Shown piece after piece: positions 1 through 35,058 of a DNA stretch of 64,000 nucleotides (positions are counted from its first letter, which is position 1; the number at the start of each line of letters is the position of its first letter). The notes under the pieces were generated by a model. It worked only from the letters and a program-made list of their open reading frames with translations. It was not told the origin of the DNA and ran no database searches. Source of the DNA: Escherichia phage JP4. The stretch lies in sequence record PQ330092; one strand, 5' to 3'. The translations under genes and the position numbers were made by a program.

Positions 1-60
1 CTGTATAATATTTTACATAGCACGGGGGAGCGGTTCCCCCTGGTAACTAAGGATAATCAA

Positions 61-360
61 ATGAAAATTGCAATCATCGCCCTGGCTTTATCTGTTTCCT
101 CTTTCGCTGTTAATGCGTCGTTAGATGTGAGTAGTGAAAAATTCATTCAGTGCACTGTTGCGATGACCAATGAAAGTACGGGCGAGATTGTTTTAAAGGA
201 TTTAGAGATCCAGCCACAAGCATTTAAAAACGGGCCGTTCCATGAAGAAGACGAAAACGGTAGCACAACCATTTATTATGATGCAAGTACTAAGCGTGGA
301 TCGGTCACGGTTATGGATACAGAGAAAGTAACGCACACAGGAGTAATTAACTGTTTATAA
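61..360 (+). CDS. Small secreted/periplasmic protein (99 aa) with N-terminal Sec-type signal peptide
   Basis: MKIAIIALALSVSSFAVNA followed by polar mature region; -10 TATAAT at 4-9, 5'UTR hairpin 24-40, SD AAGGA; terminator follows. Confidence 0.75.
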   Translation: MKIAIIALALSVSSFAVNASLDVSSEKFIQCTVAMTNESTGEIVLKDLEIQPQAFKNGPFHEEDENGSTTIYYDASTKRGSVTVMDTEKVTHTGVINCL

Positions 361-377
361 TCTAGTACTGAATCACT

Positions 378-406
378 AGCCCACCTTAAACAGTGGGCTT
401 TTTTGT
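378..406 (+). terminator. Rho-independent terminator (AGCCCAC stem, T-tract)
   Basis: AGCCCACCTTAAACAGTGGGCTTTTTTG; identical 40-bp terminator cassette at 1091-1130. Confidence 0.75.
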
Positions 407-448
407 TTTGTAGTACTGCATACTTTAAAAATAGTTTTAAAAAAGTAG

Positions 449-476
449 TTGACATTACCACAAAAAGGCGTAGAAT
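449..476 (+). promoter_or_regulatory. sigma70-like promoter TTGACA-16-TAGAAT
   Basis: Hexamers read directly; about 115-nt leader before 600..1082. Confidence 0.6.
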
Positions 477-599
477 GTATTACATCAAGACGGGGAGCAC
501 TAAGTAGACCGCCAGTAAGTCGAACGAAAAACTGGACACGTCGATAAAACTTTGATACACTAATAAACGTAAACTAAACTTTAATTGAGGATTTATAAA

Positions 600-1082
600 A
601 TGGCTAATGTAAAATCATTCCTGAAAGCACTGATTTCAAACGATACTGTTATTGCTGCTGAATTGCTGGCTGAACTGGATAACGATACAATGAAAGCGGT
701 ACGCAACAATTTTAACATTGCGTACAGTGAAGCTAAAGAACTGCAAGCCAAAAAGGTAGCAGAACTGGAAGAACAGAAAAAAGCCCGTGAAGCAGAACTA
801 CAAGCAACAATCGAAAGTATCCAGGCGGCAGTAGTTGGATTGGATCTGGAAGTGGTTGTAGAAATGGCACATAAAGCCCTGGCGGTTAAGTACGGTGAAG
901 ATAAGCCGGAATCTAAGCCTAAAAAATGGATTCAGGAACGCGTAGCGGTAGTACTGGACAACGGGGAAGAATATCTTATTCCGGTGCGTGGTAACTGCAT
1001 TGCGGTAGTACTGGACGCTATCAAAGAAAGCGGTATGACTCGCGAGGAATGGATCGAAGCTCATCGCAAAGTTGAAGCATAA
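600..1082 (+). CDS. Hypothetical protein (161 aa), N-terminal coiled-coil-like region
   Basis: Start refined to MANVKS after SD GAGGA; promoter 449-476 with long leader; terminator hairpin 1104-1130. Confidence 0.7.
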   Translation: MANVKSFLKALISNDTVIAAELLAELDNDTMKAVRNNFNIAYSEAKELQAKKVAELEEQKKAREAELQATIESIQAAVVGLDLEVVVEMAHKALAVKYGEDKPESKPKKWIQERVAVVLDNGEEYLIPVRGNCIAVVLDAIKESGMTREEWIEAHRKVEA

Positions 1083-1103
1083 CAATTAAAGTACTGAATC
1101 ACT

Positions 1104-1130
1104 AGCCCACCTTAAACAGTGGGCTTTTTT
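1104..1130 (+). terminator. Rho-independent terminator (copy of 378-406)
   Basis: Same hairpin + T-tract. Confidence 0.75.
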
Positions 1131-1283
1131 GTGTCTGTAGTATTCCAGTCCACCAGCACCGCCTAGAATCGATTCTAACGCATTAAACTGATTATCTGAT
1201 ACATCGCCCTAGCTGGTGGCGTTAAGGTCGTTAGAATGCGATTGAGAGCGTTTAAAGTATTTTGCAAAAAGTAATAAAAAGTA

Positions 1284-1311
1284 CTTGCACGATAAAGAGA
1301 TTAGCGTATAA
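1284..1311 (+). promoter_or_regulatory. sigma70-like promoter (AGTACTTGCA -35 region, TATAAT -10)
   Basis: Class shared by about 20 promoters in the early module. Confidence 0.65.
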
Positions 1312-1367
1312 TGTTTTACATCGAGAGGGGGAAACGGTTCTCCTTCCAAATCAAAGGAATCAAAACA

Positions 1368-1595
1368 ATGGCTATTATCATTACTCGCGTATCTGGTACT
1401 ACTGGCAACGAACAAGTAGTTGCAGTCATTACTAACAAGGCAGGTGCGGAATTGCAAAATGCAATGAATACCTGGGCCGTTAATGAGTTCGGTCAGTGGG
1501 CAAGTGTAGCATACATTGAAACCTATCAAGTGCCGTCGATTAGTTTAACTGATTTGGGCGTTGAGCGTATCCTTTGCCTGGATGAATTAAATTAA
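1368..1595 (+). CDS. Hypothetical small protein (75 aa), MAII-start family
   Basis: Start refined (track ATG lies in -10 box); promoter 1284-1311, hairpin, SD AAAGGAA. Confidence 0.7.
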   Translation: MAIIITRVSGTTGNEQVVAVITNKAGAELQNAMNTWAVNEFGQWASVAYIETYQVPSISLTDLGVERILCLDELN

Positions 1596-32604: not shown

Positions 32605-32671
32605 TAACTAAAACAAAGTATAATGTTTTGCATAGGGGGAGATATCCTCCCCCACTAAAAGGAGTAATAAA

Positions 32672-32896
32672 ATGGCTAACTTTGATGAACTGATGCGGGA
32701 AGTAGCTAACCTGGCAGAAGAGAAGAAATCATTCGATTCTATCTATAACACCGCTCACCGTGATTCAGTACTGGCATGTAACCAGGATCAAAAAGATGAA
32801 CTAATCGCCACCTATCATGAAGCATGGAAGTACTACCGACAATGGGAGAAAGAAGAAAGAGAGTCTACCATTGACGGCCTCAATAATCTAATCTAA
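32672..32896 (+). CDS. Duplicate of 12558..12782
   Basis: Identical sequence in repeat copy 2. Confidence 0.7.
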   Translation: MANFDELMREVANLAEEKKSFDSIYNTAHRDSVLACNQDQKDELIATYHEAWKYYRQWEKEERESTIDGLNNLI

Positions 32897-32972
32897 AAGT
32901 TTTATTTCAGTACTATTGACATAGCTTGATAGTACTGATGTAATAACTTTACTAACTACAAGGGGAAACATA

Positions 32973-33230
32973 ATGGAACAGTTCACACAATATCGGGTAA
33001 ATCCTCAAGCGATGGCCTACGTAGAAGACCATAAAACGTTACCAGTACTAACACCAATTAAAGGCCATATCTATCGTGCAATGTCGTGGTGTACGGCCCA
33101 GGATGGCTATAAAACCGTAGCCGTTGGTATGTATTGCGGTAATGGTGAATGGTTTGATCCAAATAATCCGGTAGCCATTGACAGTACTGAAAAAATGAAA
33201 TGGGCCGACTACATCGAAGATATTTCATAA
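32973..33230 (+). CDS. Duplicate of 12859..13116
   Basis: Identical sequence in repeat copy 2. Confidence 0.7.
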   Translation: MEQFTQYRVNPQAMAYVEDHKTLPVLTPIKGHIYRAMSWCTAQDGYKTVAVGMYCGNGEWFDPNNPVAIDSTEKMKWADYIEDIS

Positions 33231-33319
33231 AACTATTTGACAGTACTAACCAGTAATGTATAATGTTTTACATAGAGCGGGGGAATAGTTCTCCCGCCAA
33301 TAGTTTGGAGTAAAATATT

Positions 33320-33520
33320 ATGTCTATCGCTCTCGCCCTGGTTGAAGTACTGAAAGAAGCTAAAGCCAACCTTATCGATGTACAGATTAAGGAATTGCAA
33401 AACGGCTTAATCGGCTGTACTTGTACCGCTGGCGGTGCGGCAGACTATCGAGAACACGAATCACTCGAATCACTGGTTCGGTATCTTACCATGATCGTTG
33501 ATGATTGGAGAATCATCTAA
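33320..33520 (+). CDS. Duplicate of 13206..13406
   Basis: Identical sequence in repeat copy 2. Confidence 0.7.
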   Translation: MSIALALVEVLKEAKANLIDVQIKELQNGLIGCTCTAGGAADYREHESLESLVRYLTMIVDDWRII

Positions 33521-33765
33521 CAAAAAAGAATAAAAAAAGGGATTGACTCCGGTCAGTCCCTTTGCTATTATATACGCATAGACAAAAACTAGCCCACAGG
33601 GTGCATAGGTGTATCTAAAATATATAGTTAATAACGGTGAGTAACTATCTGCTGGTGGAACTAAAACTATTAATAAAAAAGTATTGACAAAGTATATCAG
33701 TACTGCGATAATGTATCTCGTAGGGCGGCAATGGTGCGACGGCCCACAAAGTTAGGAGCTTCAAA

Positions 33766-34098
33766 ATGACTACTTCAATCGCTATCGTTAAAGCTTTCAT
33801 CCGTACCAATGTTTCTTCTGTATTCATCGACGGTATGGATCGGGAAGTAGAATACTCAATCATTATCGCACAGACTGCAAACGGTGCTCGGTATATCCTT
33901 AATGATAGTGAAGCAAATCACTACTACTTCACTAAAGCCACTGGCTTTAAACGCATCGATGCTGATGTAGTATACGCTAAGATGAATAAGCTGGTAGACA
34001 AGATTAACGCTAAAGGCACTATTGATTTACAGTACTGGACCGAAACCGATCCAGAATATGGATCTCACCGCTACCTGAATCCAGGAATTAAAATGTAA
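33766..34098 (+). CDS. Duplicate of 13652..13984
   Basis: Identical sequence in repeat copy 2. Confidence 0.7.
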   Translation: MTTSIAIVKAFIRTNVSSVFIDGMDREVEYSIIIAQTANGARYILNDSEANHYYFTKATGFKRIDADVVYAKMNKLVDKINAKGTIDLQYWTETDPEYGSHRYLNPGIKM

Positions 34099-34187
34099 AA
34101 AGTACTTGCATAGTACTTAGATTCATGTATAATGTTTTACATAGAGAGGGGGAAATGGTTCTCCCTCCTAAATTAAGGAGTTTTATC

Positions 34188-34589
34188 ATGACCTTCTCAA
34201 TCACTTCCTTCGCTGACGTTTTAGTACTGGCTCGGACTTTTGGTAAAGATGCACTGGAGTACGCTGTAAGTAATGGCACTATCCAACCGGAACAGTGCCG
34301 CATCATTGGAAACTGCAAACGTTGGGCGGTATCCAATACTATTGCACTGGAAAACTTCCACGATGGCAACAATGAATATTCTGTTGATGTAGTATTCGAA
34401 GCCGTTGATCTCGGCGGTATCTATAATACTAACCTGAATGATGTGCGTATCGTTCGCACGGGGTTCGGTGCTTATGATGTATCTATTCGTGAAGCTATGA
34501 ACACCGGATACATTAGCAAGGACTTACTTGCTCACATCATGCAGCTGTGTACGGAACGTAACGAAGCACGCACAATCTTAGGACTGTAA
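34188..34589 (+). CDS. Duplicate of 14074..14475
   Basis: Identical sequence in repeat copy 2. Confidence 0.7.
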   Translation: MTFSITSFADVLVLARTFGKDALEYAVSNGTIQPEQCRIIGNCKRWAVSNTIALENFHDGNNEYSVDVVFEAVDLGGIYNTNLNDVRIVRTGFGAYDVSIREAMNTGYISKDLLAHIMQLCTERNEARTILGL

Positions 34590-34657
34590 GCGTTACACAT
34601 CACCAAACATCATAGGCCGCTCTCTAGCGGCCTTAACTATATCAGGAGTACATACAC

Positions 34658-34867
34658 ATGATCTATACAGTATACAGCGTCCTAGGCACTATTGCAGGCG
34701 TACATGATAACGTCGATAGTGCTATGCGTACAGTACTGCAACAGGTTCCACTAAAGCCTAAGACCATTAAGCAGATGACAGCACGACTAACCAGGGCGAC
34801 CGATGGCGTGGAAGTATGGCAGGACTACGGGGATACACAGATAATCGTTAGCGTAACGAAGGATTAA
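34658..34867 (+). CDS. Duplicate of 14544..14753
   Basis: Identical sequence in repeat copy 2. Confidence 0.65.
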   Translation: MIYTVYSVLGTIAGVHDNVDSAMRTVLQQVPLKPKTIKQMTARLTRATDGVEVWQDYGDTQIIVSVTKD

Positions 34868-35058
34868 TGCGTAAAGGGATCTAGTACTGATTCAGAAAAA
34901 AGTCAAGGCGTTTTTAAAATTATGCGTTAAAAAAATGCATAGGTAATCCCTTGACTTTTTTGAAATAAAAGGGATTGGACTATGGCAAAATGCGTAGGGG
35001 GCTAAAGGGCGGGTAACCTTAGCGACTTCGATAAAGGGGTATTACGAATAAAATGTTA

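Follow-up and report, generated by a model that had tools for sequence, protein, structure and literature searches.

An apparent 14.9-kb duplication in an Asteriusvirus genome is very probably the known ~20-kb direct terminal repeat read across the genome ends

The terminal repeat of phage T5 (about 10 kb) holds the pre-early genes. Among T5-like phages such repeats measure 10-11 kb (PMC6563267), and in SPO1 the terminal repeat, at 13,185 bp, constitutes a host-takeover module (PMC5852040). The direct terminal repeats (DTRs) of jumbo phages can be longer still, and the genes within that of PA5oct are strongly transcribed in early infection (PMC7318152). Closest to the locus described here is the DTR of fEgEco12, a repeat of 20,993 bp whose termini were located with PhageTerm and verified by restriction digests; DTRs of ~20 kb are likely general among the phage group to which fEgEco12 belongs (PMC13070987). 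Read coverage of G17 likewise indicated a terminal redundancy of about 20 kb (PMC6563267).

We analysed a single stretch of DNA of 64,000 nt (hereafter the window). Sequence identity assigns the window to Asteriusvirus, the PBECO4/121Q-like jumbo myoviruses of E. coli: identity to Asteriusvirus records is 94-97%, with the best match at about 97%, and no record identical to the window was found in the phage collection searched. Self-comparison of the window revealed that positions 1-14905 are identical to positions 20115-35019, with 0 mismatches over all 14,905 positions and an offset of 20,114 bp between the copies. An exact match of this length cannot have arisen by chance. An earlier sequence-only reading of the window had equated 1..14906 with 20115..35020; the identity is indeed exact, and each of these intervals overruns by a single base, since position 14906 is A and position 35020, its partner in this first divergent pair, is T. 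The same reading correctly described what follows each copy. Copy 1 is succeeded by non-coding DNA from 14906 to about 16546 and then by eight or nine small genes, and copy 2 by an array of paralogs of about 70 aa, which begins at 35117 and has 30 members (all-against-all blastp). We refer to the duplicated segment as A, to the 5,209 bp that separate its two visible copies (14906-20114) as B, and to the sequence after the second copy as C. The first copy of A abuts the start of the window, and the repeat may extend further leftward beyond view.

The bounds of this repeat coincide with the genome termini of related phages. The linear records of fEgEco12, CRJP21 and vB_Ec-M-J begin with the sequence found at window position 14906 (AGTAGGCAGAGG...), and those of fEgEco12 and CRJP21 finish with the sequence that ends at 14905 and again at 35019 (...GGGCGGGTAACCT), such that the repeat starts and ends exactly at determined termini. 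Judged by match coordinates, the records of E9.1, BF17, ELP-22 and G17 (reverse-complemented) start or finish at the same base, and vB_Ec-M-J carries an annotated DTR at 1-21525. The first 50 nt and the last 40 nt of the DTR are identical in window 14906-35019, fEgEco12 and CRJP21. The fEgEco12 DTR is 90-98% identical to this interval (BLAST segments of at least 150 nt), and homology extends over the whole length of the DTR, both in these segments and in megablast matches in many Asteriusvirus records. The two DTR copies within fEgEco12 differ at 0 positions, as do those within CRJP21; the two in the window are identical over the 14,905 nt seen in both, with the remainder of copy 1 outside the window. 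Moreover, B lies inside the repeat in every relative with two copies. Because both boundaries fall on the exact base at which the genomes of relatives end, the true repeat unit, on this comparison, is B plus A, that is 14906-35019, or 20,114 bp.

The apparent duplication is therefore very probably the known ~20-kb DTR, viewed where the right end of a linear virion genome runs into the left end. Positions 1-14905 would represent the final three quarters of the copy at the right end, with B predicted, from relatives, to lie to the left of position 1; that the DTR stands at both ends of linear virion DNA is likewise expected from relatives. A source record containing both DTR copies that was read as a circle, rotated or joined head to tail would produce the 14905/14906 join (here and below a slash marks a join or boundary). 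What makes the copies look like neighbours is solely that the window runs the right end into the left; their real places are very probably at opposite ends of the genome. The phenomenon is already known and ordinary in this phage group; it is very probably an artefact of representation and not an internal duplication. Under the DTR reading, the sequence to the left of position 1 should be B (…TTTTTAGTA; …AAAGTACTTGATAATAGTTTTTAGTA), completing the 20,114 bp, preceded by a region, X, ending in …CCACTA.

These findings bear on how the locus had been parsed. The sequence-only reading offered three explanations (a recent tandem duplication, a concatemer or terminal-repeat junction, and a mis-assembly) and chose none of them. 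Its terminal-repeat junction is borne out by the base-exact agreement between the repeat bounds and the genome termini of relatives, whereas a recent internal duplication of A alone gains no support. Its arrangement A-B-A-C is misleading, since the repeat unit opens with B, which makes up its first 5.2 kb, and the eight early genes it assigned to B as unique belong to the repeat and not to a unique spacer. It rightly pointed out that T5- and SPO1-type phages have long terminal repeats rich in small early genes, with the copies at opposite genome ends. The comparison with related genomes that it proposed as a check has now been run, and both repeat boundaries are shared exactly by fEgEco12 and CRJP21.

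Examination of the 14905/14906 junction is consistent with the DTR reading. Across 42 related phage records we found no single place that spans the junction, and homology to a 600-nt probe centred on it breaks at 300/301 in the Asteriusvirus records listed. In nine of the ten other assemblies that hold a B gene, the sequence to the left of AGTAGGCAGAGG is ...CAGTACTGATAT(G/C)CCACTA, without ...AACCT, and the left neighbour of B is thus a different region (X); the tenth has no exact match to the string AGTAGGCAGAGG. When the end of A was compared with what lies upstream of B in relatives, no homology emerged at E<1e-10. Rather than joining ancestrally internal sequences, the junction has the exact genome termini of relatives on both sides. 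A megablast search with the junction region found no match among complete genomes of E. coli or among plasmids, which rules these out as a contaminant source. Exact-pattern scans of IMG/VR for the junction (GGGTAACCT/AGTAGGCAGAGG) returned 0 matches, as did the control with the DTR/unique boundary, and a scan of JGI metagenomes for the DTR end also returned 0; these counts are uninformative because close relatives are absent from both collections.

A head-to-tail DTR-DTR junction could also exist in real DNA, had an intracellular end-joined circle or a concatemer been captured by long reads. From sequence alone such a physical join is indistinguishable from a wrap-around, and the join is base-precise at both termini, as blunt end-joining of mature genomes would yield. 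We nevertheless consider it improbable. The DTR-DTR junction is absent from the related records and assemblies compared, and the collapsed assemblies all have the order X-B-A-C, with one DTR per unit as in concatemers formed by recombination or replication. In addition, an internal DTR-DTR junction would hold both terminase cut sites and would be expected to be cleaved at packaging, while wrap-around or rotation of a record with two DTRs is simpler and covers everything. About as improbable is the specific version in which ...AACCT/AGTAGG... is a physical join made by cellular end-joining that keeps both repeat copies, a tandem 20 kb DTR intermediate having been assembled. Were the join real, the replication and packaging cycle would differ from that of T7, T5 and SPO1-type phages, for which concatemers with one repeat per unit are assumed.

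We regard it as very unlikely that A by itself (at least 14.9 kb) was recently duplicated as an internal segment, with B as a unique 5.2 kb spacer. Inside the window only A occurs twice, but the missing second B is no evidence, as the window edge truncates copy 1. Where A ends and where B starts, relatives have their genome termini, to the very base; a duplication arising at random would not be expected to hit both points, and the placement of B within the repeat in all two-copy relatives argues against it as well. Equally hard to credit is a pure error of assembler or submitter, in which a single-copy region was wrongly duplicated in a genome that has no terminal repeat or one of other extent: many Asteriusvirus records do have the region in single copy (including PBECO4, 121Q and slurp01, at about 348-354 kb) and DTR calls are fallible, as the questioned 8.3 kb repeat of UE-S1 illustrates (PMC13070987), but single-copy records are the outcome of DTR collapse in short-read assembly, two-copy records with the same boundaries come from several different phage isolates, and the G17 coverage (PMC6563267) and fEgEco12 restriction data (PMC13070987) back the repeat.

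Table 1. Coordinates of the proposed DTR copies and associated features in the window.
Feature	Position	Strand	Basis or remark
Distal 14,905 bp of putative right-end DTR copy	1..14905	+	Identical to 20115-35019; left part cut by window start
Probable right genome end (…AACCT) meeting left end (AGTAGG…)	14905..14906	.	Representation or head-to-tail join, non-native internally
Complete DTR, probable left-end copy, 20,114 bp	14906..35019	+	Termini as in fEgEco12 and CRJP21
Imperfect inverted repeat at left terminus, AGTAGGCAGA-ggaag-TCTGCCgTACT	14906..14931	+	Single-strand DNA fold
Non-coding DTR leader with many CAGTACTG palindromes	14906..16546	+	First CDS position of relatives
53-nt conserved terminal element with GTACTCCA…TGGAGTAC	15094..15146	+	Conservation in related records
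Degenerate 8-nt periodic array, GGAYGGCT-like	15640..15811	+	Repeat search and Tandem Repeats Finder
About 49 small genes	16580..34867	+	ORF and promoter counts, Pfam
DksA/TraR zinc-finger protein	25979-26236	+	Pfam
GNAT acetyltransferase	26301-26657	+	Pfam
DUF7247 protein	26952-27275	+	Pfam
Kinase-like protein, weak match	30624-31265	+	Pfam
DTR right boundary with unique sequence, …AACCT/TAGCGAC…	35019..35020	.	Boundary common to fEgEco12 and CRJP21
Unique region after left DTR	35020..64000	+	Synteny with post-DTR region of CRJP21, BF17, E9.1 and ELP-22
Paralog array opening unique region	35117-43223		Paralog clustering

With the junction read as the meeting of two DTR copies, the biology of the family and of T7, T5 and SPO1 allows us to infer a cycle of cleavage and duplication. 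Replication or recombination would generate concatemers in which a single DTR separates the unique parts, as X-(B-A)-C, and X-B-A-C is the order seen in collapsed assemblies of relatives. Terminase may then cut at two fixed sites, ...CCACTA/AGTAGG... and ...AACCT/TAGCG..., 20.1 kb apart, and duplication of the interval between them would leave every virion genome with a DTR at both ends. Visual inspection of the two cut sites (CCACTA/AGTAGG and AACCT/TAGCG) for a common motif yielded none that was convincing.

The left end of the DTR contains several candidate cis elements (Table 1). The left-terminal inverted repeat folds at -6.9 kcal/mol (z = -4.4), and 0 of 200 shuffles were equally stable. 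In relatives the first annotated CDS starts at 1689-1760. Within the leader CAGTACTG occurs 10 times (0.02 expected); in the literature it was found only in unrelated primer sequences. The hexamer AGTACT, recognised by ScaI, is present 133 times in the DTR. In 29 records the 53-nt element has a best match of at least 99% identity; it is conserved at 89-93% in fENko-Kae01, Munch, 7t3 and XbC2 and partly in GAP32, lying 73-251 nt from the record start wherever a record begins at the DTR. A conserved hairpin within it was rejected: judged by eye, the XbC2 stem has one mismatch and one wobble, and there are no compensatory changes. For this reason we prefer to view the element as a putative sequence-specific protein site. 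In the 8-nt array Tandem Repeats Finder reported periods of 8, 16, 24, 32 and 48 over 15713-15812, and searches across the window with Rfam (gathering thresholds) and ARAGORN found no family and no tRNA. The 1.6 kb leader is a candidate place for the packaging signals of Rak2-like jumbo phages; it combines AGTACT palindromes with the inverted repeat at the terminus and the 53-nt element, whose conservation crosses genus boundaries.

Many of the roughly 49 plus-strand DTR genes are individually preceded by a sigma-70-like promoter, a 5' hairpin and a ribosome binding site. Consensus matching counts 108 promoter-like sites in the DTR, where shuffles give 68.5 ± 8.8. A stricter pattern identified 29 plus-strand and 4 minus-strand sites in the DTR compared with 2 and 4, respectively, in the next 29 kb, and perfect TTGACA/TATAAT pairs number 12 in the DTR versus 0 in that stretch; consensus matches of the host sigma-70 type are thus dense and would serve many small genes. 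Among 20 DTR proteins Pfam identified only a DksA/TraR zinc finger, a GNAT acetyltransferase, DUF7247 and a weak kinase-like match. Because host-type promoters are dense and directed inward from the left end, the DTR looks like an immediate-early host-takeover module, with expression predicted to be early.

Comparison with relatives is enough, without recourse to reads, to set the DTR length at 20,114 bp and to mark 14906 and 35019 as the likely ends of the physical genome. It also serves as a caution: linear phage records that include both terminal repeats mimic a large tandem duplication when read across the ends, and the visible repeat can then be mis-parsed as A-B-A although the true unit is B plus A.

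With T5 and SPO1 the window shares a long exact terminal repeat, many small genes, here predicted to be early, and putative promoters for host RNA polymerase; its repeat is about twice as long, and no sequence or protein homology to either phage came to light, Pfam scans of 20 DTR proteins included. The two-step DNA transfer of T5 and the host-takeover proteins of SPO1 are features of those phages, and the likeness of Asteriusvirus to them is one of functional analogy. Nearer are the Rak2-like and related jumbo phages, whose DTRs (19,736 bp in fENko-Kae01, 22,456 bp in CBB, 39,080 bp in PA5oct and 65,875 bp in XacN1) are also exact, tens of kb long and full of small genes without known function, although genera and gene content differ and the XacN1 DTRs carry tRNA genes, of which ARAGORN found none in the window. 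The DTR of fENko-Kae01, called independently by PhageTerm, has the same right boundary (CCT/TAGC), the 53-nt left-end element and AGTACT enrichment, and its genome start likewise carries an inverted repeat, of 8 bp. The closest agreement is with Asteriusvirus itself. At 20,114 bp the window DTR compares with 20.2-21.5 kb in relatives (20,152 bp in CRJP21, 20,993 bp in fEgEco12 and 21,525 bp in vB_Ec-M-J, with about 20 kb in G17), a difference attributable to small indels and to gene gains or losses. The copies are adjacent in the window, whereas linear Asteriusvirus records have one at each end; the layout is the same in all, with a non-coding leader of 1.6-1.7 kb, about 50 small same-strand genes and then the paralog array.

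By megablast, the window belongs to Asteriusvirus, the PBECO4/121Q-like jumbo coliphages of ~350 kb, with 94-97% identity to the Asteriusvirus records and no identical record among the matches. Positions 1-14905 and 20115-35019 (segment A) match at 14,905 of 14,905 positions, with an offset of 20,114 bp and a segment B (14906-20114) between the copies. A perfect match of this length cannot have arisen by chance. The exact duplication claimed by a sequence-only reading holds throughout, except that each of its ranges overshot by one base: the nucleotide at 14906 (A) differs from that at 35020 (T). 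Because the start of the window cuts the first copy, the repeat may exceed its visible length.

Comparison with related genomes, a check proposed along with that reading, located ~20 kb direct terminal repeats (DTRs) with the same bounds in fEgEco12 (PP777464.1; 20,993 bp) and CRJP21 (OQ708376.1; 20,152 bp), each with 0 mismatches between copies. Both DTRs start with AGTAGGCAGAGGAAGTCTGCC…, the window sequence at 14906, and end in …GGGCGGGTAACCT, the window sequence at 14905 and at 35019, and both are followed by TAGCGACTTCG…, as found in the window from 35020 onward. Base 1 of the linear records CRJP21, fEgEco12 and E9.1 aligned by megablast to window 14906, and the annotated DTR of vB_Ec-M-J (1-21525) has identical ends. 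Hit coordinates further placed the first base of BF17, ELP-22 and E9.1 at the start of B, and that of reverse-complemented G17 at the right end of the DTR. The fEgEco12 termini were called by PhageTerm and then confirmed by restriction digests, and its authors consider DTRs of ~20 kb probably general in this group (PMC13070987); read coverage of G17 gave a terminal redundancy of ~20 kb (PMC6563267). As these boundaries are the termini of relatives, we read the window as the tail of a right-end DTR, a complete left-end DTR and unique sequence. The sequence comparison thus indicates that the repeat unit is B+A, with edges at the genome termini of relatives.

We next consider the join between the end of A and the start of B. 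A 600-nt probe across 14905|14906 matched 42 related records, none of which (0/42) covered the junction continuously at one place; in the Asteriusvirus records listed, homology stopped at 300|301 of the probe. In ten of ten other assemblies carrying a B protein (18433-19044), metagenome and collapsed-repeat contigs included, the sequence upstream of B was not the end of A but a region X, composed of RCC1/WD40-like genes and then small-gene arrays. Nine of these assemblies had sequence ending …CAGTACTGATAT(G/C)CCACTA| to the left of B, and the exact B-start string had no match in the tenth. Because X adjoins B elsewhere, the natural single-repeat order is X-[B A]-C, C being the sequence from 35020 onward. 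Judged against these assemblies, the joining of A to B does not belong to the native genome; such a join results when a linear record with DTRs is treated as circular, or when it is rotated or circularised. That the window instead captures a physically real intermediate with DTRs joined end to end in tandem is highly improbable. An internal duplication fails at the junction, where the flanks on both sides are genome termini. The earlier interpretation is therefore only partly supported: a terminal-repeat junction, one of the options it listed, was correct, but its A-B-A-C parsing divided the true unit.

Features of the window, with the basis or character of each
Feature	Coordinates	Basis or character
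Putative right-end DTR, last 14,905 bp	1-14905	boundary match to relatives
Putative left-end DTR, complete, 20,114 bp	14906-35019	boundary match to relatives
Unique sequence	35020 onward	boundary match to relatives
Leader	14906-16546	non-coding
Imperfect inverted repeat (AGTAGGCAGA-ggaag-TCTGCCgTACT)	14906-14931, first 26 nt of genome	ssDNA fold z = -4.4
53-nt non-coding element (TTGGTTAGTACTCCATCCTAAATCTCGATCCTAAAAATTTTGGAGTACCTATG)	15094-15146	conservation across records
Degenerate array, 8-nt periodicity, ~20 units (GGATGGCT / GGACGGCT / AAACGGCT …)	~15640-15811	non-coding leader
~49 small ORFs	16580-34867	all plus strand
DksA/TraR-type zinc-finger protein	25979-26236	Pfam E = 3e-9
GNAT acetyltransferase	26301-26657	Pfam E = 4e-9
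Weak protein-kinase-like match	30624-31265	Pfam E = 2e-3, below Pfam cut-off
ORF-less unit, six copies	18033-18125, 23996-24090, 25650-25745, 28016-28105, 31285-31375, 33543-33630	

The leader contains conserved elements that, speculatively, are candidate signals for terminase recognition or end processing. Hairpin intermediates have been proposed for T7 concatemer processing, and by analogy the terminal inverted repeat may be relevant to end processing; the genome of fENko-Kae01, a jumbo phage of another genus, likewise starts with an inverted repeat, of 8 bp (TATCTTCT-ctgtata-AGAAGATA). In 29 records the best match to the 53-nt element had an identity of at least 99%, against only 90-97% for the surrounding DNA, and the element is 89-93% conserved in fENko-Kae01, Munch, 7t3 and XbC2 (Mimasvirus) and partly conserved in GAP32. 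In every record that begins at the DTR, 73-251 nt separate the first base from the element, which may serve as a packaging site or be recognised by terminase. We also considered a conserved hairpin, but XbC2 shows no compensatory changes that preserve the stem, making a protein-binding site the likelier function. The 8-nt array, ~730-900 nt inward of the left terminus, is iteron-like.

With 133 copies in the DTR (14906-35019) against 6.5 expected, the palindrome AGTACT is in 20-fold excess and is densest in the leader; the second most enriched 6-bp palindrome reaches ~3-fold. The commonest 8-mer, CAGTACTG, occurs 33 times (0.24 expected). Many -35 and -10 hexamers have the AGTACT motif directly upstream, and it is also present 11 nt ahead of the putative left cut site. 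Similar enrichment in the fENko-Kae01 DTR (1-19736; 122 versus 6.5 expected) and the XbC2 leader (1-3000; 21 versus 0.9) makes it clade-wide, and an unknown DNA-binding regulator may recognise AGTACT.

Host-type promoters that point inward crowd the DTR, which has 108 promoter-like sites (68.5 ± 8.8 in shuffles) with 12 perfect consensus pairs among them; over the next 20 kb there are 102 (117 expected), none of them a perfect pair. Under a stricter pattern the DTR had 29 sites on the plus strand and 4 on the minus strand, and the 29 kb after it had 2 and 4, respectively. One cassette is present at least 24 times; in it, AAAGTACTTGCA-N17-TATAATGTTTTACAT is followed by a GGGGAGAA…TTCTCCCC hairpin and then by a ribosome binding site. 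Among 20 DTR proteins searched, Pfam recognised only the DksA/TraR zinc finger, the GNAT acetyltransferase, DUF7247 and the weak kinase-like match; the DksA/TraR, GNAT and kinase-like proteins are plausible modifiers of host RNA polymerase or host proteins. The DTR genes are otherwise orphan. The ORF-less units carry a promoter (TTGACT-N17-TATTAT or CATAAT), with the -35 within a AAAGGGATTGACTCCGGTCAGTCCCTTT hairpin in four of six copies, and an invariant CCCAYAGGGTGC…TGTA.CT motif ~45 nt past it. They have no Rfam match and may represent small non-coding RNAs or sites for a regulator; the jumbo phage PA5oct likewise has ncRNAs in its DTR (PMC7318152).

Beyond the DTR, 30 paralogous genes of ~65-90 aa form an array (35117-43223, plus 56017-56208) that begins 98 nt past the DTR end; the genes are packed so closely that stop and start codons overlap, and they lack promoters of their own. 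A second family has 8 members (51945-55310/59121-60831) and a third has 4 (50846-51935/57357-57719); in relatives, arrays of ~60-aa genes also occur in region X, directly upstream of the right DTR. The G+C content is 35-41% in the DTR (window 1-36000) and 29-35% in the unique region (from ~38 kb, 38000-64000), and GC skew is positive over all 64 kb, fitting the location of nearly all genes on the plus strand.

Several phages of this clade have a documented long DTR; besides fEgEco12, lengths are 19,736 bp in fENko-Kae01, 21,525 bp in vB_Ec-M-J, 22,456 bp in CBB, 39,080 bp in PA5oct and 65,875 bp in XacN1. By sequence, boundaries and organisation the window repeat is an ordinary DTR of the clade, presumably positioned at the ends of virion DNA. 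By extension from the family and from T7, T5 and SPO1, virion DNA would be linear with a 20.1 kb repeat at each end, and replication or recombination would yield concatemers in which each unit has a single repeat. Terminase would cleave each of two fixed sites, …CCACTA|AGTAGG… and …AACCT|TAGCG…, with the interval between them duplicated during maturation, and the DTR genes would form an immediate-early takeover module dependent on host RNA polymerase. Such a module has published parallels: in the related jumbo phage PA5oct, whose DTR spans 39 kb, transcription of the DTR genes is high early on (PMC7318152), and the SPO1 repeat, according to a passage in PMC5852040, codes for host-subversion functions.
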